Shown here: positions 1 to 60,304 of the stretch, piece by piece
How the letters are laid out: each line of letters begins with the position of its first letter
Numbering within the stretch: position 1 is the stretch's first letter
NCBI GenBank assembly: GCA_018826075.1
Contig: JAHKAJ010000015.1
Span: 15,091 to 79,090 of the forward strand
Origin: Candidatus Omnitrophota bacterium
Lineage (GTDB): Bacteria > Omnitrophota > Gorgyraeia > Duberdicusellales > 4484-171
Direction of reading: 5' to 3'
Length of the DNA: 64,000 nucleotides
Notes under the pieces: model-generated
Told to the model about the DNA's origin: nothing
What the model saw: the letters and a program-made list of their open reading frames with translations, nothing else
The model's database searches: none
Translations under genes and position numbers: made by a program

Positions 1-758
1 TTTGAGCAGACCATCCCCGGCTATTTTAAGCGGGATACCCTTTAACTTTTTCCAAGCTTGCAAAAGGATAGCGATTCCTTTCTCTTGAGAAAGCCGGCCG
101 GCAAAAAGAACATAGCTTTTAGTTTTTCTCTCCATCCCAGGATCAGAATTAATAAAATTAGGCTTAATAACTATTTTCTTTTCTGGAAGCCCTCCTTCAA
201 TGTATTTATCACGGGCGAACTTAGTAAGGGCGATATAAATATCAATTTGTTTCTGCCAGGTCTTAAGCCAGCGATGTATAGCTATCATTGAGGCAACTCC
301 GGCAGTTTGTAAATGAGAGCTCCTATAACAAGCCCTTAATACTCCTGGCCAAGGTAAAATAGTTTTTAGACAATGCTCACAAATTTTTCCGTCACGAAAA
401 ATAATTGCTGCCGGACAAAGTAAACGATAATTATGTAATGTCTGGACTACCGGAATTTTTAGTTTCTTGCAAGTATAGTAAGCTGACGGAGAAATGAGAG
501 GAAAAATATTGTGAAAATGAACTATATCCGGTTGTTCTTTATTTAATAGTCGAAGTAACTTGTGCTTTGATTCATTGGACCAGATGAGCTTAGCAGCCAG
601 AACTAAACTATTCATCTTGTCAATCCGGCGGTTATCCTCTGTATAGGTTATAACTTCCTGACCGCCTTGACGTAAAACTGCAACTTCCGATTTAAAAACT
701 TCGTTTTCTCCGCCGTAATTTTTATAGTAATTATGTACTTGAAGTATTTTCATCTCAA
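1..758 (-). CDS. Glycosyltransferase family 4 (GT-B, group-1 type), partial because the C-terminus runs off the window start.
   Basis: The minus-strand ORF begins with ATG at 756..758 and reads MKILQVHNYYKNYGGENEVF...LHNYRLLCPA...YVLFAGRLSQEKGI. It has the typical GT4 N-terminal architecture and is absent from the ORF track only because it is truncated. Confidence 0.6.
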
Positions 759-761
759 ATC

Positions 762-1682
762 TCAAAAGCCAAAATTATAATATACCTTTCTCTTTACTAA
801 AAACTGTAAGCTTTTAGGGGCAATTGAAAAATAGGCTAAAAGAGAAACGGCAGTAAGATTGGCTTTATTTTCCTTAATTGCCCAAAGCAACTCCTGCTTT
901 ACCTTTCCAAACTCTCCGGTCAACAGATAATATATAGCGCAGCGCAGATAAACTTTAGAGATCAGCTTATTTTTAAACCCGGGCTTAAGTCTATAATTTC
1001 TCTGGAAAGCTTTTTCGAGCATATTTTTTTCTTCTTGTTTTGACTGCTCGATATTCTTAAGAATGTAATTTGCTGACATCCGATAAAGAGTTAAAGGCTT
1101 GTTGATATAACCTACTTTATAGTTCTCAGCTAAACGCAGCCACATATCCCAATCAGCAGGAATAAAAATGGTTTCGTCAAAAAGCCCCGCCTTTTCAAAG
1201 CAAGCTTTACGGACGACCGAGGTGGAATTACAAATGTAGTTTCTGGGAAGCAACCTTTTAGCTATCCAGCCGGCTCGCCGGCTTTTAGGGTGAGAAAAAG
1301 TTCGTAAAATCCTATCGTTCTCATCTACGTAATAAGCAGCAGTATGAACGAAACCAAAATCAGGATGTTTCTCTAAATAGCCAACACTCCGCTCTATTTT
1401 TTCCGGTAAATAAATATCGTCGCAATCAAGAAAGCCAATGTAATCGCCGCTAGCTAAACCGATACCTAAATTTCTGGCACTGCAGGCGCCGCCGTTTTTT
1501 TTATAGACATATTTAATCCTCTGCTTAAAGACCGAAAGACACTCCCTGGTATTGTCGCTAGAACCATCATCAACCACAATAAGTTCTATATTTTTATAGG
1601 TCTGATTCAAGACACTATCAATGGCTTTAGCGGTCAGCTCAGCCATATTATAAGCCGGAATAATAACTGATACTTTTTTCAT
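762..1682 (-). CDS. Glycosyltransferase family 2.
   Basis: VSVIIPAYN...LIVVDDGSSDNT...FLDCDD (DXD) motifs. Confidence 0.75.
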   Translation of the reverse strand: MKKVSVIIPAYNMAELTAKAIDSVLNQTYKNIELIVVDDGSSDNTRECLSVFKQRIKYVYKKNGGACSARNLGIGLASGDYIGFLDCDDIYLPEKIERSVGYLEKHPDFGFVHTAAYYVDENDRILRTFSHPKSRRAGWIAKRLLPRNYICNSTSVVRKACFEKAGLFDETIFIPADWDMWLRLAENYKVGYINKPLTLYRMSANYILKNIEQSKQEEKNMLEKAFQRNYRLKPGFKNKLISKVYLRCAIYYLLTGEFGKVKQELLWAIKENKANLTAVSLLAYFSIAPKSLQFLVKRKVYYNFGF

Positions 1683-1691
1683 TTATTATCT

Positions 1692-2576
1692 CTACCTATC
1701 TTTATTGGTCTTAATATATTCGGCCAAAGAATCATGCCAATGAGGCATATGGTTAAGACCAAGTGAATCCAGCTTATAGTTAGAGAGTATTTCCGAACGG
1801 GGCCGCGGCGCCGGCAAAGGAAACTCTTCAGAGCTAATCGGCTTAACCTTCACTCGGCTCTTAAAACCCATAAATTCAACTATTTTTAAAGCAATGTCAT
1901 AACGCGACCCCATGCCTTTATTAACCATATGGTATAAACCATATTTTTCAGTTTCAATTACCTTCAATAAGTTAGCGGCAAAGTCTTTAGTAAAAGTGGG
2001 GCTGCCGAATTTATCGGAAACCGCCCTAAGTTCAGTTCTTCCTTGGCGTAACTGCTGGACGATTTTATAAACAAACTTCTTATCCAGCTGCCAGCCGCCA
2101 ACCATCCAGCCGGCCCGAATAATGAAATAGTCAGAAAGCAACTCCTTTACTACCAGCTCACCCTCGAATTTGCTCCTTCCATAAACATTGATTGGATCCG
2201 GCAAATCAGACTCAATGTAAGCTCGCTGCTTATTACCGTCAAATACATTACTTGTACTAATATAAAGAAGTCGGCAGTTAAACTCCCGGCAGGCATAAGC
2301 AATATTTTTTGTGCCTAGACTATTTACTCTGAAAGCATGTTCGGGATTCTCCTGGCATAAATCAACATTAGTTTCAGCAGCAAGATGAAATATATAGTCT
2401 AGTTGCAGTTGCTCGACTTTACTAAAAACTCTATCCCGATCAGTGACATCTAAAGCCTCTATGTCTGGAACCCGTTGATGAATATCAGTCTGAACGACCT
2501 GGTGTTTGGCCTCTTGCAAACGAACGATAATATCAGCAGCAAGCATACCGGCTGCTCCAGTAATTAATATTTTCAT
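1692..2576 (-). CDS. RmlD-family NDP-4-keto-6-deoxyhexose 4-reductase (dTDP-4-dehydrorhamnose reductase-like).
   Basis: KILITGAAGMLA Rossmann motif, YISTSNVFDG (the STDYVFDG-like motif), YGRSK, GSPTFTKDFA, and a length of 294 aa. Confidence 0.7.
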   Translation of the reverse strand: MKILITGAAGMLAADIIVRLQEAKHQVVQTDIHQRVPDIEALDVTDRDRVFSKVEQLQLDYIFHLAAETNVDLCQENPEHAFRVNSLGTKNIAYACREFNCRLLYISTSNVFDGNKQRAYIESDLPDPINVYGRSKFEGELVVKELLSDYFIIRAGWMVGGWQLDKKFVYKIVQQLRQGRTELRAVSDKFGSPTFTKDFAANLLKVIETEKYGLYHMVNKGMGSRYDIALKIVEFMGFKSRVKVKPISSEEFPLPAPRPRSEILSNYKLDSLGLNHMPHWHDSLAEYIKTNKDR

Positions 2577-2603
2577 GCCTCTCCTTGATTTGCAACCAAA
2601 TAG

Positions 2604-3563
2604 TTAATAATTTGTTGCTGCTTTTCGCAACCGGCCTAAAACTGCAGCGTCAGAGATTAGATCATCGTAAAACTGTCGGTAGTTCTTTTTCTTGATACTT
2701 ATTAATACCTCTCTTAAAAATAACTCAAAACAATCAGCCTTGGCTATCCTTAAAGTCCTTTTTTGGTTTTTTTCGACAATTTTGAACTCATTCTCCATCT
2801 CAACCGGAATTGTAAAAATTCGCTCTATATCTACAAATGTATCTTTACCTAAAAAACTTATGGAATTGCGGTATTCAGTATCAAAACCAAAATGCCCAAC
2901 CATTGACCTTCCTTTAGAGTAAATAGCTAACAAACTAAAAGAAACCTCAAGGTTATCTTTGCTGTCGCGGTTATTTATAGTGCAATACATTTCTTTCGGC
3001 TCCTCGCCAAAAAATAACCTTCCCGGACTAACAGCGTAAGGCCCAAGATCATAAAAAGCTCCTCCGCCTAAAGACCGGCTATATCTAAAATTATCATGAG
3101 CCAGTGGCGGAAAAGAAAAAGAAACAATCAAACGTTGAGGCTCCGTTTTGTTAGCCGAAAAAATATCTTTGGCCATTTTAATTTGAGGATGATAAGCATA
3201 AACCGTAGCTTCAGCCAAACATAGATTGCTCTTTCTTGCTAAATTAACCAATTCTTCGGCTTCCTTCAAACTAGCGAAAGCCGGTTTATCAACTATCACA
3301 TGAAAACCTTTACTAAGTGCAGCTTGAGCTAATTCCTTATGTAAACTATTTACGCTCGATATGTAAACCAAACTAGCCTTACTCTTAGACAAAGCTTGTT
3401 GATAATCATCATAGACATTTCCTCCTAAATCTTTAGGCAAAGTAATTGAAGTTTTAGCCCTATGCGAAGCAAGATCGATGCCGCTAATATCACTAATCGC
3501 CTGTATTGCCGGAATAACTCTTCTTTTTGCAATCTCTGAATAGCTCAAAATTAATACTTGCAT
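2604..3563 (-). CDS. Gfo/Idh/MocA-family oxidoreductase, putatively the NDP-hexose 3-ketoreductase of the 2,6-dideoxy pathway.
   Basis: N-terminal Rossmann fold (MQVLILSYSEIAKRRVIPAI). The track's start at 3611 is a TTG; the ATG at 3561..3563 is the more plausible start. The gene sits immediately downstream of the 2,3-dehydratase. Confidence 0.55.
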   Translation of the reverse strand: MQVLILSYSEIAKRRVIPAIQAISDISGIDLASHRAKTSITLPKDLGGNVYDDYQQALSKSKASLVYISSVNSLHKELAQAALSKGFHVIVDKPAFASLKEAEELVNLARKSNLCLAEATVYAYHPQIKMAKDIFSANKTEPQRLIVSFSFPPLAHDNFRYSRSLGGGAFYDLGPYAVSPGRLFFGEEPKEMYCTINNRDSKDNLEVSFSLLAIYSKGRSMVGHFGFDTEYRNSISFLGKDTFVDIERIFTIPVEMENEFKIVEKNQKRTLRIAKADCFELFLREVLISIKKKNYRQFYDDLISDAAVLGRLRKAATNY

Positions 3564-3579
3564 ATCTTTAACTAAAAAT

Positions 3580-4872
3580 TTACCGGCAAGATAAAAGAGT
3601 TCTTGCCTCAACGCTTACTAAACTGGTCTGGCCAGTAAAATCTAGAAGTTGATCAAAGGTCATCCAGATATAATTAGAAGGTATTTCTAATTCTTCGTTC
3701 TCTCCAACTTCGATTATCATATATCTGTTTTGAGAATGGTAAAAACGTCCTCCTTCTTCCGAAAAAATAACTGAAGATTTAATCTGCTCCGGCGTTGCCT
3801 TAATAAATAACTCTGCAAAAGGAGGCAATTGGCCGCTTTTAAGTCTTTGTTCCGGATCAGAATAAGATACCGTAGGTGCCATTTCGCAAGTATTAATATA
3901 GCCGGGCTCAACTTTAGCCTGGACCAAAGCATGTAAAACACCCTTTATTCTTTTGGTCAGAAACCCCACCATTCCAATATTGGACGGCTTCAATAAAGGT
4001 TGAGACCAGCTTCTGACTTCGCGACCTTCAACCTTAACCGAAACAGCGATAATTGAAAAAAAGGTTCTTGATTCATGACTAATCTGCCAATCATCGATAT
4101 GCCAACCACCCCGGACATCTTTCAAAGCAATACTTTCAGTTTGACACTTATATTTGCTTCTTAATCCCTGGATCCAACTGGCTATCTGCGATTTAGTATA
4201 AATGCCATCACCTTCTTGAGCGGTTAAAGGAAAACAAGAGAGCACCGACCTAGCATCCATATTTACAAAATTATCAATAGCCAAAAGCTCCTTTATCTGC
4301 CTCAAAGTTAACCAATAGAAATTAGGCGGTAAATTTATTTCTTGATCAATCTCAACAATTACGTTGCGATTTCGTTTGCGTAAGAATTTTGCTCCTTGCT
4401 CAGACTGCAGTTGGTCAACTAAAATTTTAGCCTTGCTACCATTAAGAAAAAAATCTAAAAATAAAGGCTGTTTCCCTTTATGAACTTGAGTATAATTACT
4501 TTTAGTAGCTTGGACCGTAGGTGATAATTGAAAAATATTAACATTCCCCGGTTCAACTTTAGCCTGCATAAGAAAATATCTGACCCCGCCGATTATTTTA
4601 GTAACAATACCTAAGATACCGATTTCCGGTTGATTTATGATCGGCTGCTCCCAAAATCCCGGGTATCGAAAATTGGTTTCAATCCTCAAGCCCTCAATTC
4701 TAAAAAATTTACCTGAAGAATGAACGATATTTCCTGAATCTTCTTCAAAGTGCCAACTATCTAATTGGCTAAATGGAATCTGCTTAACTGAAAAATTGGT
4801 TAAGTTTTTTAACCGCTCGAATTCTGACTTAAGGCCCTTAACGCTTATAAAATTTCTATCTTTTATTCTCAT
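3580..4872 (-). CDS. NDP-hexose 2,3-dehydratase (two tandem Hexose_dehydrat/Nudix-like repeats).
   Basis: Internal duplication is visible in the protein: ...YFLMQAKVEPGNVNIFQLSPTVQATKSNY... and ...HALVQAKVEPGYINTCEMAPTVSYSD.... The 430-aa two-repeat architecture is typical of EvaA/TylX3/OleV-type enzymes. Confidence 0.6.
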   Translation of the reverse strand: MRIKDRNFISVKGLKSEFERLKNLTNFSVKQIPFSQLDSWHFEEDSGNIVHSSGKFFRIEGLRIETNFRYPGFWEQPIINQPEIGILGIVTKIIGGVRYFLMQAKVEPGNVNIFQLSPTVQATKSNYTQVHKGKQPLFLDFFLNGSKAKILVDQLQSEQGAKFLRKRNRNVIVEIDQEINLPPNFYWLTLRQIKELLAIDNFVNMDARSVLSCFPLTAQEGDGIYTKSQIASWIQGLRSKYKCQTESIALKDVRGGWHIDDWQISHESRTFFSIIAVSVKVEGREVRSWSQPLLKPSNIGMVGFLTKRIKGVLHALVQAKVEPGYINTCEMAPTVSYSDPEQRLKSGQLPPFAELFIKATPEQIKSSVIFSEEGGRFYHSQNRYMIIEVGENEELEIPSNYIWMTFDQLLDFTGQTSLVSVEARTLLSCR

Positions 4873-6821: not shown

Positions 6822-7782
6822 TTACCCCTCTGGATCTTTTTCCTAAAGCCCTAATCCAGGTGCCTTGAGGATTATTGGTAACTGTACCGTAATACCACTG
6901 ATAAAATCTTTTTGAAATACATACCGGGATAAAAAAACGCAACTTATAGAATAGGTTTTCCAGTATTTTAAAAATCACTCTATTTTTACCGCGGCCGGCC
7001 GGAGAGCCTTGCATATCCCTTCCATAACAAGCAATCTGCTGAAGGCTTAAACCACTTTTTTCAAAAAGCATTTGCAGGCTCAGCTTATTGAAAAAAGTTA
7101 AATGCGGGAATACGTCCAGTTTGAACAGATAATCTTGATTAGGCAAATCAGCAAAAATGTATCCCCCTTCAGCTAATTTCTCTACTGCTTTTTCCAGCAT
7201 ATCCTTAGGCCGATAAAGGTGTTCTAAAACATTTGATAAAATAATAATATCAAATTGCCCTTCTATTGCCTCTAAACTGTCTTCAACTTTCAATTTAATC
7301 TTAGGATAACCTTTATGCCAAGTTTTTTTGAGTGACTCCCTTAACACATTGTCTTTTTCGACAATGTAATAACTGTCTAAACATATTTCCCGATCTTTAG
7401 CTGCAACCATTCCTAAAAACCCCTGCCCGGCCCCGATATCAAGCATAGATATGGCTTTAGTAATTTTCTTAATAACCGGCTTAATAATTCTCCAACGGGC
7501 AGTAGACAAAGCATAATGGCCAGGGAATTTCCTCGGCAACAAGACCTCTACTCGAGAATTATTCCAATAACCGCTCTGGGAATAAAATTCAAGCAACTGC
7601 TCATCGCTCAATTTGGGAAAAGCTACTCCAACACCGCAACTACTACAAAAAAGGATAGAGTGCGGCTTGGAAAGAAAACTATTCCTAGATAAATCCGTAG
7701 GGTACTTTACAGTTCTAAAACCAGAATCTTCCAAAGACCGAGAACAGACAGGACAAATCAATAATGTTTTCTCGATTATCAT
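6799..7782 (-). CDS. Class I SAM-dependent methyltransferase with an N-terminal Zn ribbon.
   Basis: CPVCSRSL...CSSCGVGVAF Zn ribbon and LDIGAGQGF motif I. Confidence 0.6.
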   Translation of the reverse strand: MIIEKTLLICPVCSRSLEDSGFRTVKYPTDLSRNSFLSKPHSILFCSSCGVGVAFPKLSDEQLLEFYSQSGYWNNSRVEVLLPRKFPGHYALSTARWRIIKPVIKKITKAISMLDIGAGQGFLGMVAAKDREICLDSYYIVEKDNVLRESLKKTWHKGYPKIKLKVEDSLEAIEGQFDIIILSNVLEHLYRPKDMLEKAVEKLAEGGYIFADLPNQDYLFKLDVFPHLTFFNKLSLQMLFEKSGLSLQQIACYGRDMQGSPAGRGKNRVIFKILENLFYKLRFFIPVCISKRFYQWYYGTVTNNPQGTWIRALGKRSRGVNESSNHY

Positions 7783-8705
7783 GATCTAAAAAAATTAATC
7801 AGGTTTTTTGTCGCTTCCACTTCCATTGCCAAACGAGATTCTCTGGTTAAAGTTCCCACATGGGGAGTTAAAATTACATTATCCAGTTCAAAAAGCTTTC
7901 CTCGATAGGGCTCCTTAGAAAAAACATCCAAGGCTGCCGCAGACAAATACTTGCTGGATAAAGCATCGTATAGAGCATTTTCATCAATAAATTTACCCCG
8001 GGAAGTATTGATTACAGCAGCCCCTCTTTTCATCAAGGATATTTTTTCTCTATCCAGCTTAAAAGAGTCAGCAGCATTATCAGAAAGATGGATAGATATA
8101 ATATCAACGACACTCAATAATTCCCGCACCGGTAAAACCTTCAAGTTATTGCTTTTAGCCCAGGCATCATCAATAACCATATCTGCCCCGTAAAGATCAG
8201 CCTCTAATCTATTTAATAATTCAACTACCCGGCGGCCTATCCTGCCTAAACCTAATATCCCCACTTTTGCTCCGCTCAATAAATTTCCAGATACCTTTTG
8301 CCATTTTCCCGACTTCAAAAGAGCGGTATGAAAACTCAAATTACGCAATAAATCAAAAAACATGGCAATGGTTAGTTCGGCCACCGGCTGGATTACCACG
8401 CTGGGAGTATTAAAAACAGCGATACCTTTTTGTTTAGCTTTCGATAGAGCTATATTATCTAAGCCTACGCCGCAACGTGAGATACAGCGAAGCTGCGGCA
8501 AATGGTCAATAACGTAATCGTCATAAGGTTCAAGGCCGGCGATTGCGCCTTCGGAATCTTTACCCATTTTGATTATTTCTTCCTGGACTAACCTTCGGCC
8601 TAAGGGATTAATAAAATACTCAAAACCATTTTGTTCAAGCAGATTCAGCGATTCTTTTCCGTGTTCAGCAAAAGTCGAAGCTGAAATAAATATTTTCTTA
8701 CTCAT
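7779..8705 (-). CDS. D-isomer-specific 2-hydroxyacid dehydrogenase family (PGDH/glycerate dehydrogenase-like).
   Basis: GILGLGRIGRRV NAD-binding motif and a catalytic-domain layout typical of the family. Confidence 0.7.
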   Translation of the reverse strand: MSKKIFISASTFAEHGKESLNLLEQNGFEYFINPLGRRLVQEEIIKMGKDSEGAIAGLEPYDDYVIDHLPQLRCISRCGVGLDNIALSKAKQKGIAVFNTPSVVIQPVAELTIAMFFDLLRNLSFHTALLKSGKWQKVSGNLLSGAKVGILGLGRIGRRVVELLNRLEADLYGADMVIDDAWAKSNNLKVLPVRELLSVVDIISIHLSDNAADSFKLDREKISLMKRGAAVINTSRGKFIDENALYDALSSKYLSAAALDVFSKEPYRGKLFELDNVILTPHVGTLTRESRLAMEVEATKNLINFFRS

Positions 8706-9469
8706 CTTATCTTTTGATAGAATGCCTGCTGAGCAGGGTCCTGAAGCAAAATCTTTTCAACCTCTTCTACATCACTTTCTCTATCTACGGCTACTGTCCG
8801 CTGAGGATAAATAACGCTGTAAATCGGATACCCGTGCTCAAGTATTCTTAAGAAATCTATGGATTCGGCTATTTCCATAGTCGTATGCGGCAAACTAGAA
8901 TATTGCCGTAAAAAAGTTTTGGTAAATGCAGAGATCCCTGTCTGGCGGTATGCCGGGCAATTATTTTTTACCCGCATATAGGGAACAGGCAGACGGGAAT
9001 AATACATAATATAGCCTCTATTGTTTAAAACCGCCTTAACCACGTCAGTATTATTTAAATCGCCTTCCTCGCTAATAACCGAAACCAAGTTAACGCATTC
9101 GGCCTTTTTATCCCTGACTATTGGCCGGACAACCAGATCAAAAGGGCCGGGATCAATAAGCGGCTCATCTCCTGAAATAATAACCACGATATCAACATCT
9201 AATTTTTCAGCTGCCTCTTCGATGCGGTCAGTGCAGCGCTGATGAGTATCAGCGGTCATAACCGCTTTCCCGCCATAGCGTTCAACAGTTTCTTTTATCT
9301 CATTATCGCAAGTAGCCACATAGACATCATTAAAAATTTCGGACAGAAGAGCCCGCCGGCGGACATGTTCAATCATCGGCAAACCCAATATATCCACCAG
9401 GGGTTTTCCGGGAAAACGCGAAGAAGCCATCCGAGCAGGAATAACTGCTGCTATCTTTTTTTTATTCAT
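8702..9469 (-). CDS. KdsB-like 3-deoxy-ulosonate cytidylyltransferase (CTP_transf_3 family).
   Basis: IAAVIPARMASSRFPGKPLVDILGLPMIEHV closely resembles the KdsB N-terminus; length is 255 aa. Confidence 0.65.
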   Translation of the reverse strand: MNKKKIAAVIPARMASSRFPGKPLVDILGLPMIEHVRRRALLSEIFNDVYVATCDNEIKETVERYGGKAVMTADTHQRCTDRIEEAAEKLDVDIVVIISGDEPLIDPGPFDLVVRPIVRDKKAECVNLVSVISEEGDLNNTDVVKAVLNNRGYIMYYSRLPVPYMRVKNNCPAYRQTGISAFTKTFLRQYSSLPHTTMEIAESIDFLRILEHGYPIYSVIYPQRTVAVDRESDVEEVEKILLQDPAQQAFYQKIR

Positions 9470-9491
9470 ATCAAAATTGCTTCATACATAA

Positions 9492-10106: not shown

Positions 10107-10109
10107 TAT

Positions 10110-12257: not shown

Positions 12258-12308
12258 AAAAATTCCTCCTTACTAATTGTTAATAACTATTTTGTTTTCA
12301 AAAACTTT

Positions 12309-12917: not shown

Positions 12918-12921
12918 CTGA

Positions 12922-16819: not shown

Positions 16820-16822
16820 TAA

Positions 16823-18991: not shown

Positions 18992-19007
18992 AATACTCTG
19001 CAATATT

Positions 19008-49482: not shown

Positions 49483-49483
49483 C

Positions 49484-51246: not shown

Positions 51247-52217
51247 TTTGCCCCCACCATAGCTCTACAAGCTTCTTTAATCCGGTTTAGGATGCTGATT
51301 GTGTCTATCTGATTTATTTTATAGAGATGGTCACGGCCGCCAAGTTCAAAAACATACCTATCTTGGAAACCTAAACCTTTAAAGAAAACATTAGCTTGCC
51401 GATCATTTAAAATATTTAAAATCGCTGAATCCAGCCCGCCTTTTTTAATAAAAGCCTCTTCCAAAGTAATTACATATTTATAGTTCTTTAGAGTTTCAAA
51501 AATCAAATCTTCGTTCAAGGGTTTAATCAAAAGCATATCCAATAATCCGCAGTTAATACCTTGATTGCTAAGCTCCTCCACTACTTCACGAGCCTTGTGG
51601 GTCATGTAGCCGGTTGAAACTAAACAAACATTTTCACCTTTCTTAAGTTCATAAAATCCTCTTTCTAAATCCTCAAAAGTAATCGTATCGTAAATTTGCG
51701 GCAAGGGTTTGGCATCGAGCCGAAAGTATTTTGGTTTTTTAACCTTAAAAGAATATTCAGCCAAAGCCTTAGTTGCTACCCAATCACTGGGAGAAGCCAC
51801 AATAAAGTTAGGTAAAACTCGCATTAAAGCAATGTCCTCAAGACAATGGTGACTGGGTCCGGAGACATCATAACTTATCCCTGAACCAACTCCGACTAAA
51901 TTTATATTTAACTCCTTAGTTTGAGCAAGCAAAGATAAGTTATTTCTATTCTGTTCAAAAGCCCGCATAATTAAAAACGGTGCAATAGCATAAGCATAGA
52001 CGATGTAACCTTCCAAAGCCAACCCGGTTGAGATGTTAATTAAATTCTGCTCGGCAATTCCCACATTGATAAACCGGTCACTAAAATCTGCTCTCACTTT
52101 ATCGAGAACCGACGAACCAAAATCAGCCGATAAAAAGAAAATACTCTCATCTTTGGTCATTCGCTGATAAATCTGCTCAATAAAAGCATCACGCATTGTC
52201 TTCTTGCTAGGATTCAT
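51243..52217 (-). CDS. Transketolase, C-terminal (pyrimidine-binding) subunit.
   Basis: FLSADFGSS...INVGIAEQNLI. Confidence 0.75.
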   Translation of the reverse strand: MNPSKKTMRDAFIEQIYQRMTKDESIFFLSADFGSSVLDKVRADFSDRFINVGIAEQNLINISTGLALEGYIVYAYAIAPFLIMRAFEQNRNNLSLLAQTKELNINLVGVGSGISYDVSGPSHHCLEDIALMRVLPNFIVASPSDWVATKALAEYSFKVKKPKYFRLDAKPLPQIYDTITFEDLERGFYELKKGENVCLVSTGYMTHKAREVVEELSNQGINCGLLDMLLIKPLNEDLIFETLKNYKYVITLEEAFIKKGGLDSAILNILNDRQANVFFKGLGFQDRYVFELGGRDHLYKINQIDTISILNRIKEACRAMVGAK

Positions 52218-53029
52218 AAGCTCGATTCCTCAACTAGAGCATCAACCTCTTGGGCCGAAAGAGACCGAACATGGCAAAGACTATCATTTTCTAATTTAGG
52301 GACCCCTTTTCCTTTTTTGGTTTGAGCAATAATGAGCTTAGGCTTAGAGTTTCTGTCTTTTTTGGCTTTCAGCAAAACTTCCTGCATTACCGCTGGGTTA
52401 TGACCGTCAACTTCTTGAGTCATCCAACCAAAAGCCTTAAATTTATCGGCTAAGGGAGTTAAATCAAGTATTTTACTGCAATAATCAAGCATGCAAATCT
52501 TATTGTTATCAATAATTAAAATTAGATTATCCAACTTATGATAGCCGGCAAACATAACTGCCTCCCAAACTGAACCTTCATAAAGCTCTCCATCACCAAG
52601 AACAACAAAAACGCTCTCAAGCCTATTCTTTCTCTTTAAACCTATAGCTACTCCTGAAGCCACGCCTAGGCCGTGGCCTAGGGAACCATTTATAGTTTCA
52701 TAGCCAGGAATCAGGGTGTCGGGGATACCACCCAAGAACGAGCCTTCCTTGCAAACAGTTAAAAGTTCTTTTTTATCAAAAAATCCTAAATCAGCTAAAA
52801 TCGGATATAAACAGATTGAACCATGGCCTTTGCTGACTATCAACCGGTCTCTGTCTTCGGCCCTAAGGTTTGTCGGGTCATATTTCAATACTTTGCCATA
52901 ATACAGAGCCACAAAAAGCTCAACACTGGATAACGAAGAGGCAATCCGGGTCTCAGGAGCTAACTTATGCACCTTTAAAGTTTCTTTACGCACCCAATTA
53001 GACTTTTCAACTAAGAAATTTGGCTGCAT
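52214..53029 (-). CDS. Transketolase, N-terminal (TPP-binding) subunit.
   Basis: GHGSICLYP...LGDGELYEGSVWEA. Confidence 0.75.
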   Translation of the reverse strand: MQPNFLVEKSNWVRKETLKVHKLAPETRIASSLSSVELFVALYYGKVLKYDPTNLRAEDRDRLIVSKGHGSICLYPILADLGFFDKKELLTVCKEGSFLGGIPDTLIPGYETINGSLGHGLGVASGVAIGLKRKNRLESVFVVLGDGELYEGSVWEAVMFAGYHKLDNLILIIDNNKICMLDYCSKILDLTPLADKFKAFGWMTQEVDGHNPAVMQEVLLKAKKDRNSKPKLIIAQTKKGKGVPKLENDSLCHVRSLSAQEVDALVEESSL

Positions 53030-54516
53030 TCTAATGGATCCTCAAACAGCTTCCGGTTTAGTTTATGTTCCAACATCTGCTTTATATGTTCAAGCGTAGG
53101 TTGACCGAATTTTTCCTCAACCATCTTAAGATATCTAGGATTTTTATAATACTCATCAAAGGCCCGGTCTCTAAAACTTAACACCTCTTTGGCCGAAATA
53201 TGCTTAGTAGCCAAAGGAATAGTTTCTCGACTAATCTGTGAATATTCGAGCCAATTAGAAGAAAGTTTAATTCCCTGCTTTAGGGACTCCTGATAAAGCC
53301 TTGAACCAGGATAAGCCATGGTGGTGTAAAAATTAATATATTCGCAATTAAGCTCTTTTGCTAAATCTAAAGTCTCCTGCATTGATTCTAAATCATCATC
53401 GGGAAGGCCAAACATAAAATTACCGATTATGTTAATTCCTGCATCTTTGGTCATTTCAACCACTCTTTTTATTGCCGCCTGATCAAACCTACCCTTGGAA
53501 ACTTCCTCACGCACTTTTCTGCTAGCAGCTTCGATTCCATAAGCTAACCAATTTACTCCGGCTTTTTTTAACTTGTTCAAAATAGCTTCATCAACTGTAT
53601 CAATTCTGGCATAAGCCCAAATATTTAAATCATAGTTACGCTCAATCAATAAATCACAAAATTGGTTAACTCTTTCCTTATTAAGAACAAAAAGTTCATC
53701 AAGAATTTTAAAGTTTTTAACAGCATACTTCTTTACTAAAAAATCTATCTCTTCAACTACTTTTGAAATACTGCGATAACGTATTCCCGGTTGCCCATTG
53801 TACAACGCCCTGATATTGCAATATTTACAGTCAAAAGGACAACCCAAACTAGTATAGATAACTGCATAAGGACTGCGTTGATTGACATGGTCAAAACAAT
53901 GCCAATTGTGAGCACGGTATTTATCCATCGGCAAAAGATCCCAGGCAATAAACCCCAACTCATCTAAATCTTTAATTAAATCTGCCCAACCATTAGCAAT
54001 AACTTTCCCGTTTTTTACATACCAAAGACCTTTAATCAAAAGATCTCCCATTTCCTGATCAGTTTTCAATGTTTTTAAAAGTTCTAAAATCGGATAGAAA
54101 CTTTCTCCCCGACAAACAAAATCAACTGCTTCCTCCTTGAGAGTTTTCTCAGGCAAAGCTGAAACGTGAATACCATAGGCGACGGTCTTACCCTTAAGCT
54201 GCTTTGCTTTAAGCAGTTTTAAAACCTGACTGGCTGCGGCCATCTTAGGTGTTGATGCCGCCGATGGATTAGCCCCTATTGTACCAACGCCAATCAAAAT
54301 TGGATCGCAAGCAACGATTCTTTCAACGATCTCTTGAGTACTTAACTTTTCTGCATCAGCATCTATAATTGCGACTTCAAATCCCTTGTCGCGAATAAAA
54401 CTGGCTAACAAACCTGTCCATACTGGAGGTTCGATTCCAGAAAAAACCTCACTCAGTTTTCCATATGTGACTTTTTTATTGCCGGGATTTATTAGTAAAA
54501 GGTCTGGCTTATTCAT
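53011..54516 (-). CDS. B12-binding radical-SAM enzyme (class B).
   Basis: B12-binding N-terminal domain and SLGCPFDCKYCN. Confidence 0.75.
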   Translation of the reverse strand: MNKPDLLLINPGNKKVTYGKLSEVFSGIEPPVWTGLLASFIRDKGFEVAIIDADAEKLSTQEIVERIVACDPILIGVGTIGANPSAASTPKMAAASQVLKLLKAKQLKGKTVAYGIHVSALPEKTLKEEAVDFVCRGESFYPILELLKTLKTDQEMGDLLIKGLWYVKNGKVIANGWADLIKDLDELGFIAWDLLPMDKYRAHNWHCFDHVNQRSPYAVIYTSLGCPFDCKYCNIRALYNGQPGIRYRSISKVVEEIDFLVKKYAVKNFKILDELFVLNKERVNQFCDLLIERNYDLNIWAYARIDTVDEAILNKLKKAGVNWLAYGIEAASRKVREEVSKGRFDQAAIKRVVEMTKDAGINIIGNFMFGLPDDDLESMQETLDLAKELNCEYINFYTTMAYPGSRLYQESLKQGIKLSSNWLEYSQISRETIPLATKHISAKEVLSFRDRAFDEYYKNPRYLKMVEEKFGQPTLEHIKQMLEHKLNRKLFEDPLECSQIS

Positions 54517-54525
54517 TGAGCTCCT

Positions 54526-55458
54526 CTAAACGTTAGAATATTGATTCCTTTTTATAATCTGATATCCTTTTATCAATTCAGCAATTCCATCTTGGAGTGA
54601 AACATCAGGTTTTAATCCGGTAGCTTCGATTTTTTCATTACTAACAATATAGTCTCTTTTGTCGGGATCTTCGCCGATATCGGCTTCAACAAAATAAAAA
54701 TCAGGGAGTTGCTTCTTAATCTCCTGGCATAACTCTCCTTTGCTTAAATTAGCATCACTCAAACCTACGTTATAAGCCTGATTTTTCATAGTTTCAAAAT
54801 TACCTAAAGCATGAATAAAAGCCTTAGCCACATCACGAACATGGATATAATTTCTTTTGAAATGAGCCTGAAAAAGAACTATGAACTTATCGTTTACAGC
54901 TCGGTAAACAAAGTCATTAACTAAAAGATCGAGGCGCATTCGGGGGCTAACTCCAAAAGCAGTGGCTAAACGTAAAGTAATGACATTTCCAGATTCAAGC
55001 AGCATTTTTTCAGTTTCTACCTTTAACTTTCCATAAAGCGAAACCGGCCTTAAAGGAGTTTCCTCGGTACAAAAAATGTCTTTTTGGCCTATACCATAAC
55101 CACTATTGGTGGTTGGGTAGACGATAGTCTGATTTTGGCTACGTAAATCCAATATTAGCTTCACTGCGTCAAGAATAACGCTCCTGGCCACTAAAGGGTC
55201 TTTCTCGCAAAGCGGAGCGCCAGTAAGACAAGCTAAAGGAATAATAGCCTCCACTCCTTTCATGCTCTCGGAAATTATGCTTTTATCTCTGGCGTCACCA
55301 CGGATAATGGTTAATTTTTTATGATTGCAGCAATCTAGAAGTGAAGACTGATTATACATAAAGTTATCAACTACTCTTACTTCATGGCCATTATTAAGTA
55401 ATTGAGGAACTAATACTGATCCTATATAACCGGCCCCGCCAGTAACTACTATTCTCAT
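54526..55458 (-). CDS. NAD-dependent NDP-sugar epimerase/reductase (extended SDR).
   Basis: RIVVTGGAGYIGS and YGKLK. Confidence 0.7.
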   Translation of the reverse strand: MRIVVTGGAGYIGSVLVPQLLNNGHEVRVVDNFMYNQSSLLDCCNHKKLTIIRGDARDKSIISESMKGVEAIIPLACLTGAPLCEKDPLVARSVILDAVKLILDLRSQNQTIVYPTTNSGYGIGQKDIFCTEETPLRPVSLYGKLKVETEKMLLESGNVITLRLATAFGVSPRMRLDLLVNDFVYRAVNDKFIVLFQAHFKRNYIHVRDVAKAFIHALGNFETMKNQAYNVGLSDANLSKGELCQEIKKQLPDFYFVEADIGEDPDKRDYIVSNEKIEATGLKPDVSLQDGIAELIKGYQIIKRNQYSNV

Positions 55459-56423
55459 ATTTTCTTAACCCCCGTTTCAGCTTCATTGTTTGATAGTTTA
55501 ACCGCCGTTTGATAACCAAGATAGGTCTTAGCAATTCCTTCCTCTAGCGATGTTTTCGGCAGCCAGCCTAATTTTCTTATTTTTGTAGCATCTAAAGACT
55601 TCTCAGGAGCTCCGTCAGGTTTTGTGTTGTCAAAGATAAGTTCTCCTTTGTACCCGACAATATCTTTTATAACCATAGCTAATTCTTTTATCGAGATATT
55701 TTCTCCTGAGCCAAGGTTAATTGCTGTCGAACCATTATAACTAGTTATCAAAAAAATAGCCGCCTTGGCAACATCATCAATAAAAACAAATTCTCTTCTC
55801 GGATTACCACTTCCCCAAACAATCACCGAATCAAAATTATTAATCTTAGCTTGATGAAATTTATCAATTAAAGCCGGAAGCACATGTGAATCTTGAGAAC
55901 CAAAATGATCATCAGGACCATAAATATTTGAAGGTATAATACAGATAAAACTTGTTTTATACTGACGATTATAAGCCTCACACATTTTAACCCCGGCAAT
56001 TTTAGCTATAGCATAAGGTTCACTGGTTGACTCTAGGCGCCCTGTCAGCAGGTTATCTTCATTCATCGGCTGAAGGCAATGCTTAGGATACATGCAAGCA
56101 CTGCCAAAGAATAAAAGCTTTTTAACTCCCGAAGCGTATGCCGAATGGATGGTATTGGTCTGGATCATAAGGTTCTCGTAGATAAAATCTGCTGGATAGC
56201 TACTGTTTGCACCGATTCCACCGACCCGGGCAGCAGCTAAAAATACATAATCGGGCCTCTCCTGACTGAAAAATCTTTCAACTTCTATCTGCCGAGTAAG
56301 ATCCAATTCTTGATGGCTTCTGGTTAGTAGATTGGTATAGCCTTTTTTATTAAGTTCACGAACTAAGGATTTTCCGACTAATCCTGTGTGTCCGGCAACA
56401 TAAATCCTAGCCTGTTTTTCCAT
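55455..56423 (-). CDS. GDP-L-fucose synthase-like (Fcl/WcaG) 3,5-epimerase/4-reductase.
   Basis: RIYVAGHTGLVGKSLVREL...FLAAARVGGIGANSSYPADFIYENLMIQTN closely matches Fcl. No GMD-like gene was recognised nearby. Confidence 0.75.
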   Translation of the reverse strand: MEKQARIYVAGHTGLVGKSLVRELNKKGYTNLLTRSHQELDLTRQIEVERFFSQERPDYVFLAAARVGGIGANSSYPADFIYENLMIQTNTIHSAYASGVKKLLFFGSACMYPKHCLQPMNEDNLLTGRLESTSEPYAIAKIAGVKMCEAYNRQYKTSFICIIPSNIYGPDDHFGSQDSHVLPALIDKFHQAKINNFDSVIVWGSGNPRREFVFIDDVAKAAIFLITSYNGSTAINLGSGENISIKELAMVIKDIVGYKGELIFDNTKPDGAPEKSLDATKIRKLGWLPKTSLEEGIAKTYLGYQTAVKLSNNEAETGVKKI

Positions 56424-56427: not shown

Positions 56428-58404
56428 CTAAATACCCAACTTCTCTTCAGTCCAGGTCCGTTTTTCCTTATACCACTGGACAGTATTTTTTATTCCGGTT
56501 TTAAAATCTACCTGGGTTGAGAAACCCAAAGCCGAGATCTTTGATGAATCCAGGCAATAGCGAAAATCATGGCCTGGACGGTCAGTGACAAAATCAATAC
56601 AGTCTTTATCTTTTCCCAATAGTTTTAAGATCTCTCTGGCTAAATCGATATTTCTTTTCTCAACCCCTGAGCCTAAGTTATAGACTTCGCCAAGCTTTCC
56701 CTTGTCCATGACCAAAGCAATACCCCGGACACAATCGGTAACATAAAGCCATTCGCGTTTATTCAATCCTTGAGCATAGACCGGAATTTTTCTATCGGCT
56801 AAAACACTGGAGATCGCCACCGGGATAAACTTTTCCGGGTATTGCCAGGGGCCGTAATTATTGGAAGGCCTGATGGTCACTGCCGGAAAACCATAAGTCC
56901 GGACATAGGCTCGAACTAGGAAATCTGCGGCAGCCTTAGAAGCTGAATACGGCGAATTAGGCGCCAAAGGATGATTTTCCTTAAACTTACCTTTTTCAAT
57001 ATCACCGTAAACTTCATCGGTGGAAATATGGACAAACCTCTTTACCTTATATTTGCGGGCGCAGGCTAAAAGGTTAAGAGTACCCCGGACATTGACTTCT
57101 TCAAAAATAAACGGGTCTCTGATTGAATTATCGACATGGGTATTATGACAAACTACATTTCCTATTCCACAAACGAAATTGTGGCTCTTCTCTACTTCCA
57201 GATCATAAACCCAACCTTCATATTGAATTTCCTGTTTTTTTCTCTTCACCAATCCATAATGCTGGCCAGATAATTCAGTCTTAAACTCCCAGCTTCTTTT
57301 ATAGTTCTTTCTATCGCATTCAAAAACTTTGAATTTTTTTCCTTGTAATGTTAAAAGGAGGCTGATTTGATTCGTTAATTTGTAAGAAGTAGTCGAATAC
57401 CTGCCATCTTTAGTGCCATCACCTTCGAGTAACTTACTCCAAAAAAAACTCCGTTGATTAGCTTCTAAATCAAAAATCCAATCTGGGAAGAATTTTCCAT
57501 CACAATATTTTCCACAATTTTTTATTAAATAATTGAAAAACTTTTTATTGGACACCTGTAAATAAAACACATCTTTATGCTGTTTATTTTTATGCTTACC
57601 GATATAGCATTTTAACGAAAATTCTTTTCTAATTAGTTCTCCTATATGTTCAATCCATCCCTTGTTAGCTTGATTAATTTCTATGATATATCCGCCATTA
57701 GCCTTATTGAAAGTCGCATTTCCTTCTGTTATATAGGCTGCTAGAATTTCCAAAAGTGCCAAGCTTTTTCTCTTATTCCTTTTTTTTATTTCATTTATTT
57801 CTCTAATAACCAATAACTCCGGGTTAGTGTGCGGATTAGTCAACTCAAGACTTGAACTATAAATAGAATGGTTTGGAGTTGCTTTTATAACTCCATGCTT
57901 CTGAATTAGTTTTATAATCTTACCTTTATACCTATGTCGAGTAATTGCTTTGACTGGCATCCATTGGCCACCATTCAGAAAACTTAAAATTTTCGTCTGC
58001 TTGCCTCTTAAAAATATCGCTTCCCCCTTTTCGTTCTTTATGGGCTTATTATTTTTAGCCTGTTCTTTCCACAGCTCACCAAAGGTAATTGTTCTTGTCC
58101 CTATCCTGGGGACAGATTGAACTGGGACATAAATATCCTCGGGAATGCTTTCAGCCGCTAAATGTACCACCGTGTCTATAGGATGTGGAAAAATCTCTTC
58201 AATGTCAGAAATATTTCTTAAATCAGCCTTGATAAAATGATAACTTTTATTTTTGGAAACATCTTTCAAGCGGGCTAAATCTCCGGCGTAACTTAAATTA
58301 TCCAGGTTAAAGACGTTACAGTCGCGCTTATTTTCTAAAAGATAACGCACAAAATGCGATCCAATAAACCCTAAACCACCGGTAACTAAAATATTTTTAG
58401 CCAT
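56428..58404 (-). CDS. rmlB: dTDP-glucose 4,6-dehydratase (RmlB) interrupted by an intein.
   Basis: ILVTGGLGFIGSHF...HLAAE|intein|THVDNSI...YSASKAA.... The protein is 658 aa against about 320-350 for RmlB. Confidence 0.8.
   Translation of the reverse strand: MAKNILVTGGLGFIGSHFVRYLLENKRDCNVFNLDNLSYAGDLARLKDVSKNKSYHFIKADLRNISDIEEIFPHPIDTVVHLAAESIPEDIYVPVQSVPRIGTRTITFGELWKEQAKNNKPIKNEKGEAIFLRGKQTKILSFLNGGQWMPVKAITRHRYKGKIIKLIQKHGVIKATPNHSIYSSSLELTNPHTNPELLVIREINEIKKRNKRKSLALLEILAAYITEGNATFNKANGGYIIEINQANKGWIEHIGELIRKEFSLKCYIGKHKNKQHKDVFYLQVSNKKFFNYLIKNCGKYCDGKFFPDWIFDLEANQRSFFWSKLLEGDGTKDGRYSTTSYKLTNQISLLLTLQGKKFKVFECDRKNYKRSWEFKTELSGQHYGLVKRKKQEIQYEGWVYDLEVEKSHNFVCGIGNVVCHNTHVDNSIRDPFIFEEVNVRGTLNLLACARKYKVKRFVHISTDEVYGDIEKGKFKENHPLAPNSPYSASKAAADFLVRAYVRTYGFPAVTIRPSNNYGPWQYPEKFIPVAISSVLADRKIPVYAQGLNKREWLYVTDCVRGIALVMDKGKLGEVYNLGSGVEKRNIDLAREILKLLGKDKDCIDFVTDRPGHDFRYCLDSSKISALGFSTQVDFKTGIKNTVQWYKEKRTWTEEKLGI
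57142..58149 (-). mobile_element. Intein (about 336 aa) with a LAGLIDADG-type homing endonuclease, inserted in the RmlB HLAAE-S/THVD active-site region.
   Basis: Ser1 is residue 86 (codon 58147..58149). Block B reads GVIKATPNHSIY. The LAGLIDADG-like motifs are LALLEILAAYITEGNA and FFWSKLLEGDGTKDGRY. The C-terminal blocks F and G read GWVYDLEVEKSHNFVCGIGNVVCHN, ending at Asn421 (57142..57144), followed by Thr+1. Confidence 0.7.
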
Positions 58405-59828: not shown

Positions 59829-59830
59829 AA

Positions 59831-60208
59831 TCAAACCTCCGCCTTAATATCTTCAATCTCCTCTCCGTTAGCAATCAACTCCTGCTGTAACTTGCTCCAT
59901 TCGCTGCGCATCCGATTATATTCTTCCTCTTTTTTCTTTAAAAAGTGATAGGCAAGATGAATCTTCTGCTTTAAGCCGCTTTTAGTAAGAATATACCTTA
60001 CCTTACCCAACTTATCTTTGCCATGGGAGAAATTTCTGGCTTTGATCAGGTTTTTCTTGATTAGCGATTTTAGCAAGTAGTTAGTTTTACCCAAAGAGAT
60101 CTCAAGATGACTCGACACATCTCTCTGAGTTAAATCGTCTTGGCTGGATAAAAGACGCAGGATATTAAAAATATCCTCACCGAGAGTATATTTTTCTTCT
60201 TTCGCCAT
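59831..60208 (-). CDS. Small winged-helix (MarR/PadR-like) transcriptional regulator; first gene after the promoter.
   Basis: 125 aa, with a ...[30 protein letters not shown]... HTH-like segment and a C-terminal coiled-coil. Confidence 0.4.
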
Positions 60209-60220
60209 GAACTTATATAA

Positions 60221-60236
60221 CCCGTTAGCCCGTTAG
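60221..60236 (-). repeat. Perfect tandem 8-mer direct repeat (CCCGTTAG x2), a candidate operator in the 5' leader of the regulator gene.
   Basis: Plus-strand CCCGTTAGCCCGTTAG lies 12 nt from the regulator start codon at 60206..60208. Confidence 0.35.
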
Positions 60237-60276
60237 GAAAATATGAAAACTTACCCCTTGTTCATTTATTGAACAT

Positions 60277-60304
60277 ATTATAAAACCACACCGGGATATG
60301 TCAA
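60277..60304 (-). promoter_or_regulatory. Near-consensus sigma70-type promoter (TTGACA-N16-TATAAT) driving the regulator and the downstream array.
   Basis: On the minus strand, TTGACA is at 60299..60304 and TATAAT at 60277..60282, with a 16-nt spacer. It lies in the only substantial intergenic gap of the window. Confidence 0.45.

Follow-up and report, generated by a model that had tools for sequence, protein, structure and literature searches.

Does a perfect promoter followed by a regulator gene mark the beginning of the gene array in which it stands? The question is raised by a 64,000-nucleotide stretch of a groundwater Omnitrophota genome (assembly GCA_018826075.1, contig JAHKAJ010000015.1, positions 15,091 to 79,090; hereafter, the window), in which tightly packed glycan genes on one strand leave a single sizeable intergenic region, and this region carries a consensus sigma-70 promoter. 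A first-pass annotation of the sequence had taken this promoter, with the small regulator gene behind it, as the head of an island bounded by coordinates 60304 and 1. We found that the 64 kb of the window come from the interior of a glycan locus that is larger than 74 kb and open at both ends, and that the promoter is genuine and internal to this locus. On balance, we think that the locus directs the biosynthesis of a surface polysaccharide of the O-antigen or exopolysaccharide (EPS) type, with an internal promoter and regulator. Its architecture is a further case of a known locus type, not a new kind of system.

The minus strand carries all 64 genes of the window: 63 open reading frames (ORFs) of at least 100 amino acids with protein-family matches and, at the left edge, a partial GT4 glycosyltransferase gene. 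Five ORFs of at least 100 amino acids were found on the plus strand, all of them short and antisense within annotated minus-strand genes. Among the 63 junctions, there is a single gap of 143 nt (60209..60351); every other gap measures 51 nt or less, and 14 junctions are four-base overlaps (13 of them literally ATGA). The first-pass picture of a very large, tightly packed one-strand glycan locus devoted mostly to precursor synthesis and tailoring was sound. Nor did recognizable terminators interrupt the array: a scan along the window found no canonical intrinsic terminator, no minus-strand terminator combining a strong stem with a good T-run, and no terminator-like site in the 143-nt gap, and all candidates lay inside genes. 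Such a scan can detect terminators in this lineage, since a relative shows a textbook example at a true operon boundary. Total numbers of promoter-like and terminator-like sites in the window were at or below those of shuffled controls; what sets the promoter apart is its quality, its position, and its conservation alone. Scans of the window for Rfam families, tRNAs, and tandem repeats gave no matches.

The limits first assigned to the island did not survive. Both window ends cut through ORFs, and a 65.6-kb Logan contig (L007; other loci and contigs are likewise denoted by L and a number) overlaps the left end and adds at least 10 kb of further glycan genes on the same strand, which together make the locus larger than 74 kb and open at both ends. 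Past coordinate 1, this continuation encodes a GT4 glycosyltransferase, a PMT_2-like protein, a DegT aminotransferase, a GT2 glycosyltransferase, a second PMT_2-like protein, a Glyco_trans_1_2 protein, the flippase Wzx, a B12-radical-SAM (S-adenosylmethionine) enzyme, and a radical-SAM/SPASM protein. The right end yielded less. Look-ups of three right-hand proteins gave only contigs of 2–5 kb, an exact 32-mer had no match in metagenome contigs, a scan of metagenome contigs with the partial DegT protein found only relatives of at most 71% identity, and an identical full-length protein was not among the results of a homolog search with the same partial protein. The ATP sulfurylase, scanned against genomes, reached at best 70% identity, with hits spread over mixed phyla.

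Within the window, four codirectional glycan genes precede the regulator. They encode a DegT/PseC/WecE-type sugar aminotransferase whose 5′ end lies off the window (63008..64000; Pfam DegT, 2e-67; NCBIfam PseC/WecE-like models below their cutoffs), an ATP sulfurylase (61753-63024; Pfam ATP-sulfurylase/PUA_2), an adenosine 5′-phosphosulfate (APS) kinase (61143-61760; Pfam APS_kinase), and a CysQ-like 3′-phosphoadenosine 5′-phosphate phosphatase (60352-61146; Pfam Inositol_P), all on the minus strand. The last three form a cassette for 3′-phosphoadenosine 5′-phosphosulfate (PAPS) that had been listed among the contents of the island; at 60352..63024, it lies outside the island’s bounds and upstream of the promoter said to lead it. 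The same applies to a DegT gene (63008 to beyond 64000); the total of three DegT genes had been given correctly.

Local tblastn and context look-ups revealed a conserved block in diverged Omnitrophota-type MAGs whose regulators are 55–73% identical to that of the window. A common block order is shared by L165, L167, and L174: two short-chain dehydrogenase/reductase (SDR) genes, DegT, ATP sulfurylase/APS kinase, sometimes CysQ, a gap of ∼130–170 nt, the regulator, RmlA, RmlC, RmlB, an Fcl-like SDR, and a split transketolase. The DegT gene thus adjoins the PAPS genes in relatives as well, and the Fcl-like and split-transketolase genes follow the rml genes there too. In L174, a 429-kb contig, the head of the array lies ∼11–12 kb upstream of the regulator, with genes for a ROK protein, a 773-amino acid protein, and two UDP-sugar dehydrogenases, and is itself preceded by housekeeping genes, a strong intrinsic terminator, and promoter-like sites. 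By homology, the array in the window probably begins several kilobases beyond base 64000. The locus is accordingly not led by the promoter and regulator, since functionally linked codirectional genes for PAPS synthesis stand before them and the array of relatives starts ∼11–12 kb upstream. For annotation, the lesson is one of caution: a perfect promoter in the sole intergenic gap need not mark the start of a locus.

The promoter nevertheless merits attention. The element (TTGACA-N16-TATAAT; 60304..60277, minus strand) is the sole 12/12 match in the 60 kb scanned and lies within the sole 143-nt gap. In an alignment of 11 diverged loci (alignment A3), the −35 hexamer TTGACA and a TAnAAT-type −10 hexamer are invariant or near-invariant, with flanks only ∼45% identical. 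We consider the promoter real because it is conserved across diverged relatives (together with the palindrome described below, in at least 10 Omnitrophota loci), and the first-pass annotation was right both about its sequence and about the small winged-helix regulator gene that follows it. This gene (59831..60208, minus strand; 125 amino acids) encodes a MarR family EPS-associated transcriptional regulator (Pfam HTH_24) that matches NCBIfam TIGR04176, here called MarR_EPS, with 103.1 bits against a trusted cutoff of 88 over model positions 6–103 of 105. It has 127 homologs, and nearly all of the named ones come from metagenome-assembled genomes (MAGs) of Omnitrophica/Omnitrophota.

Immediately downstream of the −10 hexamer lies a perfect 17-bp palindrome, TGTTCA-N5-TGAACA (60259..60275, minus strand), present in one exact copy in the window and positioned as a candidate MarR_EPS operator over the transcription start. 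In alignment A3, the palindrome is invariant and starts 1–3 nt (usually 1) after the −10 hexamer. Across 164 loci, every exact copy sits next to a regulator homolog or next to a NusG-like gene that is itself near one. The copies in relatives lie at L010 11988, L011 9792, L012 12032 and 12119, L015 18088, L022 5368, L027 186, L088 1503, L091 15655, L093 2981, and L165 9926; in L012, they belong to two promoter-palindrome units in tandem, and in L091, the palindrome falls at the very end of the available locus sequence. On the 762-kb contig L010, the same promoter and palindrome stand before an UpxY/NusG-like gene (NGN and KOW motifs; 11994..12542) two genes ahead of MarR_EPS. Such long arrays might therefore be subject to processive antitermination, as this arrangement hints. 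No NusG/UpxY-like gene was found within the 64-kb window.

A palindrome over the start site of a strong promoter that drives a MarR-type gene is a classic layout for autorepression. The palindrome is most likely the operator through which a MarR_EPS dimer would repress its own promoter and the genes downstream until a signal relieves the repression; transcription from a promoter farther upstream would probably read through the region as well. In four relatives, the ATG of the regulator gene lies inside the palindrome (TGTTCAATGAATGAACA), ∼8 nt past the −10 hexamer (L027 186-202, L015 18088-18104, L088 1503-1519, and L093 2981-2997), which implies a near-leaderless regulator mRNA that would start within its own putative operator. 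The regulator of the window has a leader of ∼60 nt that carries, directly before the ATG, the motif CTAACGGG-CTAACGGG-TTATATA (60214..60236, minus strand). The repeated CTAACGGG motif is shared with the closest relatives; AACGGGTTATATA stands in the same place in L165, and L011 has two copies of it. This leader has no obvious Shine–Dalgarno sequence and no significant RNA fold (z = 0.46), and we dropped the idea of a riboswitch or attenuator given the lack of significant RNA structure. We found no experimental work on the TIGR04176 family in the searchable literature, and as far as we checked, a promoter-plus-palindrome cassette for this family is apparently undocumented.

What would such a locus make? 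We propose a layout in three zones. The first would be a conserved 5′ core for sugar amination, PAPS synthesis, MarR_EPS, dTDP-rhamnose, the Fcl-like SDR, and the split transketolase. The second would be a long and variable tailoring region of lower third-codon-position guanine-plus-cytosine (GC) content, supplying an acetamidino-legionaminic acid and the products of three further cytidylyltransferases (including a route resembling that to 3-deoxy-d-manno-octulosonic acid, Kdo), together with a heptose-type GDP-sugar and a 2,6-dideoxyhexose; these would be decorated by B12-radical-SAM enzymes, SAM methyltransferases, acetyltransferases, and a PAPS-dependent sulfotransferase. The third would be a 3′ end for assembly and export, with glycosyltransferases, a Wzy-like protein, GT-C-like proteins, and Wzx, while an ABC exporter sits midlocus. 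The sugar products, binding of the operator, cotranscription, and the final acceptor of the glycan are all predicted here from sequence.

The assembly genes argue for a polysaccharide. A TIGR04440-type glycosyltransferase (45758-46825) is followed by an MsbA/HepA/PglK-like ABC exporter (43939-45765) and a 429-amino acid protein without a family match (42653-43942). Toward the left edge are a 639-amino acid polytopic membrane protein (4902-6821), a GT2 glycosyltransferase (762-1682), and, cut by the end of the window, the 5′ portion of a GT4 glycosyltransferase (1-754); all lie on the minus strand, and the last two open the assembly and export end of the locus. The polytopic protein matches Pfam Wzy_C at 1.1e-5 (25.7 bits), which is below the gathering score of the family; Wzx (Polysacc_synt) sits in the downstream extension L007. 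Together, Wzx, the Wzy-like protein, the ABC exporter, and the extra glycosyltransferases point to a lipid-linked polysaccharide, as predicted from family matches. The scarcity of glycosyltransferases noted earlier is correct for the window, with about four recognizable ones, and is partly an effect of its edge, given the GT4, GT2, Glyco_trans_1_2, and two PMT_2-like genes just past coordinate 1.

A link between the two halves of the array comes from sulfate. A 356-amino acid protein (21611..22681, minus strand) belongs to no Pfam or NCBIfam family; Pfam Sulfotransfer_3 reached only E 0.035, which is not significant. We modeled it with AlphaFold2 (pLDDT 89.7), and a Foldseek search of the Protein Data Bank (PDB) with the model returned sulfotransferases for all of the top 50 hits (best E 5e-7), with modest TM scores of 0.4–0.5. 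The family comprises 708 homologs, many of them at least 50% identical, and has an invariant GxxGCGK loop. On the strength of the model, this protein is the probable user of the PAPS made upstream, and its family, associated with nonulosonic-acid clusters, looks like an unmodeled group of sulfotransferases. With the PAPS genes upstream of the promoter and the sulfotransferase-fold gene 38 kb downstream of it, this pairing ties the two halves together.

These observations bear directly on other readings of the locus. In one, the window would hold a self-contained operon of ∼60 kb that starts from the promoter near 60270, is controlled solely by the small regulator, and serves to glycosylate flagellin, pilin, or an S-layer protein, as the first-pass annotation had suggested by likening the island to protein O-glycosylation islands. 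The promoter is indeed real and of consensus strength, legionaminic and PtmA-like/PtmE-like genes are generally known as typical of Campylobacter flagellin loci, tailoring genes far outnumber transferases in the window, and the Wzy_C domain is, as a matter of general knowledge, common to PglL-type O-oligosaccharyltransferases. However, the PAPS genes needed downstream precede the promoter on the same strand, no terminator was found between them, and relatives begin their array ∼11 kb before the regulator. Domain searches found no flagellin, pilin, S-layer, or Maf (DUF115) domain in the 64 ORFs of the window, and no flagellin or Maf genes in the 10-kb downstream extension, which adds further glycosyltransferases past the window edge. 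What the locus has instead is Wzx, the Wzy_C-like protein, the ABC exporter, MarR_EPS, and a TIGR04326 match, all of which indicate a polysaccharide, and we regard the operon reading as unlikely. The main rival holds that two or more glycan systems share the strand, for example, an ABC-exported system (∼64–43 kb) and a Wzx/Wzy-dependent one (∼43 kb to beyond coordinate 1), with promoters of their own hidden in coding sequence. Such a division could be drawn between the ABC exporter that follows the midarray glycosyltransferase (43939..46825) and the Wzx downstream in L007; near 58.4 kb, past rmlC, third-position GC drops, genes on the minus strand contain several promoter-like sites with 10/12 matches (e.g., 59942, 15186, and 14565), and hyper-variable cassettes have been reported from Aspo Omnitrophota (bioRxiv 10.64898/2026.05.20.726742). 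Yet promoter-like sites are not enriched over shuffled sequence and the internal ones reach at most 10/12, the supposed units are divided neither by a gap above 51 nt nor by a convincing terminator, the PAPS genes at one end are matched by the sulfotransferase-fold gene in the other half, and a sister lineage has its genes in identical order over the central 21 kb. This division is conceivable, and we hold it to be doubtful.

Far less credible is a secondary-metabolite cluster for an aminoglycoside, an aminocyclitol, or a heavily glycosylated natural product. The 2,3-dehydratase, the DHQS-family enzyme, DegT, the inositol-dehydrogenase-like Gfo proteins, the B12-radical-SAM enzymes, and the ABC exporter are, from general knowledge, common in antibiotic deoxysugar and aminocyclitol pathways. 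Against this stand the absence of polyketide synthase, nonribosomal peptide synthetase, terpene, or other aglycone genes from the 64 kb, a DHQS-like protein that resembles true DHQS more closely than it does DOIS or EEVS, and a set of surface-glycan hallmarks (NeuB/NeuC/LegB/LegC, KdsB-type, Wzx, Wzy_C-like, and GT-C-like proteins and an EPS-family regulator). The surface-polysaccharide locus that we favor has its own weak points. A priming transferase, a chain-length regulator, an outer-membrane exporter, and WaaL were not seen in the available sequence, and the same holds for genes of lipid A or the core. Wzy_C is matched only weakly, and this domain is also found in O-oligosaccharyltransferases, so that en-bloc (PglL-type) protein O-glycosylation is possible, and the presence of both ABC and Wzx export routes could mean two glycans. 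Another factor could bind the palindrome, or MarR_EPS could act as an activator instead of a repressor. Cotranscription and read-through are predicted from the sequence, the array head is placed by reference to relatives with regulators of 71% identity, and junctions were scored on the longest ORFs, whose start codons lead some overlaps to be overestimated.

Among described systems, the closest layout is the rfb locus of Leptospira, which in a survey of 722 genomes starts with a MarR gene, continues with fcl and sugar-modifying genes, and includes rfbC/D/B/A and Wzy-pathway genes (PMC10958091). Both loci are very large and combine a MarR-family regulator and an fcl-type gene with many sugar-modifying enzymes and rfbA/B/C/D, to which Leptospira adds Wzy-pathway genes and the locus described here Wzx (in L007) and a putative Wzy-like protein, and a 615-amino acid protein of the window weakly matches TIGR04326, the family of Leptospira LIC13510. 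Nonulosonic-acid genes occur in Leptospira too. The two loci differ in that the MarR gene defines the start of the locus in Leptospira, whereas ∼11 kb of same-strand glycan genes come before the regulator in Omnitrophota, where the rml genes stand at the 5′ side directly after the regulator; Leptospira is also of another phylum. The likeness of the MarR genes holds at the family level. With TIGR04176 regulators at large, the window shares a regulator above cutoff inside an exopolysaccharide-type locus, as the family name implies. The flagellin island of Campylobacter jejuni (pse/leg/ptm/maf), as generally known, resembles the window in its legionaminic pathway, PtmA-like and PtmE-like proteins, acetamidino tailoring, and many tailoring genes; unlike that island, the window is without flagellin and Maf/DUF115 and the locus has Wzx (in L007), a Wzy-like protein, an ABC exporter, and GT-C-like proteins. 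The capsular loci of Bacteroides headed by the NusG-like UpxY are also long one-strand polysaccharide operons, and L010 carries an UpxY/NusG-like gene behind the same promoter and palindrome, but the 64-kb window has no NusG-like gene, and no invertible promoter or UpxZ-type partner was seen.

The genes directly behind the regulator complete the conserved core. They are rmlA (58959-59834; Pfam NTP_transferase), rmlC (58397-58957; Pfam dTDP_sugar_isom), and an intein-interrupted rmlB (56428-58404; Pfam Epimerase/GDP_Man_Dehyd; TIGR01181, 391 bits in two stretches), all on the minus strand, and with an RmlD-type reductase (1692-2576, minus strand; Pfam RmlD_sub_bind, 2.6e-75) near the left edge, the dTDP-rhamnose set rfbA/B/C/D is present in the window (RmlA, RmlC, and RmlB at 56428-59834). 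Third-codon-position GC is 0.40–0.49 from rmlC upstream (58397 to 64000) and 0.25–0.41 in the 57 genes downstream. The step near 58.4 kb suggests a conserved core joined to laterally acquired tailoring cassettes. Several relatives (L022 3387..5276, L010 10001..11890, and L165 7946..9832) have ATP sulfurylase and APS kinase fused in one protein of ∼628 amino acids, which the window encodes as separate genes with an 8-nt overlap, and some relatives have an extra DUF2061-APS-kinase gene.

The interruption of RmlB is a 336-amino acid insert with LAGLIDADG-like motifs (57142..58149, minus strand; residues 86-421). Splice motifs are recognizable (Ser1 at Ser86, block B TPNH, and VVCHN(421) followed by Thr+1), and Pfam Intein_splicing scores 30.8 bits, below its gathering score of 35.8. 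Without the insert, RmlB is 322 amino acids long and reads as a continuous normal protein. By these features, the insert would qualify as a class 1 intein with a homing-endonuclease domain. Its insertion site lies in the conserved motif HLAAE|S...HN|THVD. The RmlB of L022 (8303..10363) lacks this intein and has a different one at HIS|C...GN|TDEVYG, and the protein thus appears to have two independent insertion sites. We found no literature linking inteins with dTDP-glucose dehydratase. An archaeal origin of the sequence, which the intein brought to mind at first, was rejected: the promoter is of a conserved bacterial type, and NCBI assigns proteins identical to ORFs of the window (one of them with locus tag KKH93_01305) to a “Candidatus Omnitrophica bacterium” MAG.

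Downstream of this core, the tailoring region follows in several blocks, all on the minus strand, with sugar products assigned by family membership and, hence, predicted. A nucleotide-sugar tailoring block (46850..56423) encodes the Fcl-like SDR, an SDR epimerase, a B12-radical-SAM enzyme, a split transketolase-like pair, an HddA-like GHMP kinase, an HddC-like nucleotidyltransferase, a second B12-radical-SAM enzyme, and an RfbH/DegT-type pyridoxal phosphate enzyme; the HddA/HddC-like kinase and nucleotidyltransferase lie with the split transketolase at 49484..53029. Next comes a second ulosonic-acid module (34511..42632) with a short NeuB, a PseF-like cytidylyltransferase, an SDR, a VOC/glyoxalase-fold protein, two SAM methyltransferases, a radical-SAM/SPASM protein, and three Gfo/Idh/MocA oxidoreductases. 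Its NeuB (41772..42632), at 286 amino acids, is without the C-terminal SAF domain and stays far below the cutoffs for NeuB and PseI; the sugar that it condenses may be a different one.

A legionaminic-acid module with acetamidino tailoring occupies 22693..34514 and encodes a cytidylyltransferase, a PtmA-like SDR, NeuB/LegI, a B12-radical-SAM enzyme, NeuC/LegG, a NeuD/PglD-type acetyltransferase, WbuZ(HisF)/HisH/WbuX, a PtmE-like CBS-nucleotidyltransferase, LegB, and LegC. NCBIfam models are matched by NeuB (477 bits; cutoff, 400), NeuC (492; 236), NeuD (207; 161), WbuX (346; 203), and LegC (470; 420), while LegB (433; 475), the PseF-like cytidylyltransferase (144; 206), and the PtmA-like and PtmE-like proteins fall below their cutoffs. 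The enzyme set for CMP-legionaminic acid, the predicted product, appears complete and contiguous at 22693-34514. A search of the literature for Omnitrophota with legionaminic acid found nothing relevant.

Farther along, a Kdo-like/heptose-related module (7779..14962) comprises a Gfo oxidoreductase, a methyltransferase, a GmhA-like SIS protein, an FSA/transaldolase, an HpaI-type class II aldolase, an HAD phosphatase, a hexapeptide acetyltransferase, a KdsB-type cytidylyltransferase (subfamily NF009905, 271 bits against a cutoff of 255), and a D-2-hydroxyacid dehydrogenase. The KdsB-type route proper, with its HpaI-type aldolase, SIS, FSA/transaldolase, HAD, and 2-hydroxyacid dehydrogenase proteins, spans 7779..12917. 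A methyltransferase gene (6799-7782) adjoins the gene for the polytopic membrane protein, and farther toward the left edge lies a 2,6-dideoxyhexose branch (1692..4872) made up of an NDP-hexose 2,3-dehydratase (Pfam Hexose_dehydrat, 2e-144), a Gfo-type ketoreductase, and the RmlD-type reductase. Most family counts given at first pass were reproduced (four CTP_transf_3 cytidylyltransferases, two NeuB, three B12-radical-SAM and one SPASM, four methyltransferases, and about four recognizable glycosyltransferases); six Gfo/Idh/MocA oxidoreductases had been listed, of which we count only five.

Between these modules lies a further group of genes. Next to the sulfotransferase-fold gene, the minus strand encodes a third cytidylyltransferase (20938-21600), a DHQS-clade enzyme (19789-20928; TIGR01357 aroB, 318.5 bits against a cutoff of 305), a KduD/FabG-like SDR (19008-19769), and two large proteins without a Pfam family: one of 737 amino acids (16823..19036; probably 722 from Met16, as in the database copy of 722) and the protein of 615 amino acids (within 14972..19036) with the weak match to TIGR04326, a surface-carbohydrate family. 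Structures of true DHQS are nearer to the DHQS-clade enzyme than those of DOIS, EEVS, or DDGS, and we dropped the idea that sedoheptulose-7-phosphate cyclases are its closest kin. The larger protein represents a family of ∼700 amino acids with 1,624 clusters at 50% identity (relatives at L169 11813..13867 and L172 13729..15945) that is always found beside DHQS-like, cytidylyltransferase, and SDR genes. The family has no Pfam or NCBIfam match, PDB sequence searches with the single protein and with profiles of 4 and 38 sequences found no relative, and a single-sequence AlphaFold2 model of the 737-amino acid protein was unusable (pLDDT 34). When this protein was compared by hhalign with the 615-amino acid protein, no more than a motif of 39 columns emerged (6% probability), and the comparison with the 429-amino acid protein gave nothing; PDB sequence searches with the 615-, 429-, 356-, and 639-amino acid ORFs gave no meaningful matches. 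Our guess is that the 737-, 615-, and 429-amino acid proteins are the missing transferases.

Genes for the sulfotransferase-fold, DHQS-like, cytidylyltransferase, SDR, and ∼700-amino acid proteins co-occur next to legionaminic-acid (Leg) genes in Omnitrophota, Margulisbacteria, and Pseudomonadota, and in a sister lineage whose sulfotransferase-fold protein is 89% identical, gene order is the same over 21 kb. This cross-phylum set could be a widespread, as yet unnamed “legionaminic-acid accessory” pathway. More tentatively still, the block at ∼12–34 kb might encode undescribed chemistry: an amidinated, sulfated, and possibly B12-radical-SAM C-methylated legionaminic derivative plus a second CMP-unit made via the DHQS-clade enzyme, installed by the ∼700-amino acid family.

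In several MAGs and groundwater metagenomes, the locus was assembled only as fragments of 2–5 kb broken within the locus (contigs L003, L004, L005, L006, and L009, for example, are 2–2.5 kb long). This fragmentary assembly suggests strain-level heterogeneity. Hyper-variable polysaccharide cassettes have been reported in Aspo groundwater Omnitrophota (bioRxiv 10.64898/2026.05.20.726742).

Three leads strike us as most interesting: the promoter-palindrome cassette, the cross-phylum sulfotransferase-fold/DHQS-like/∼700-amino acid cassette beside legionaminic genes, and the rmlB inteins. If our reading holds, no operator of the MarR_EPS family would have been defined before that of the promoter-palindrome cassette, and promoter, palindrome, and MarR_EPS would form a regulatory unit that is testable in vitro without culturing the organism. 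Targets for enzymology include a sulfotransferase-fold family that lacks a Pfam model, a ∼700-amino acid family without a structural relative, and a DHQS-clade enzyme set among glycan genes. The Omnitrophota have not been cultivated; their cells are often very small and are thought to live attached to other organisms (bioRxiv 10.64898/2026.05.20.726742). For such a genome, a glycan locus larger than 74 kb is a large investment, and the locus is a candidate determinant of how the cell presents itself to hosts, phages, and grazers.

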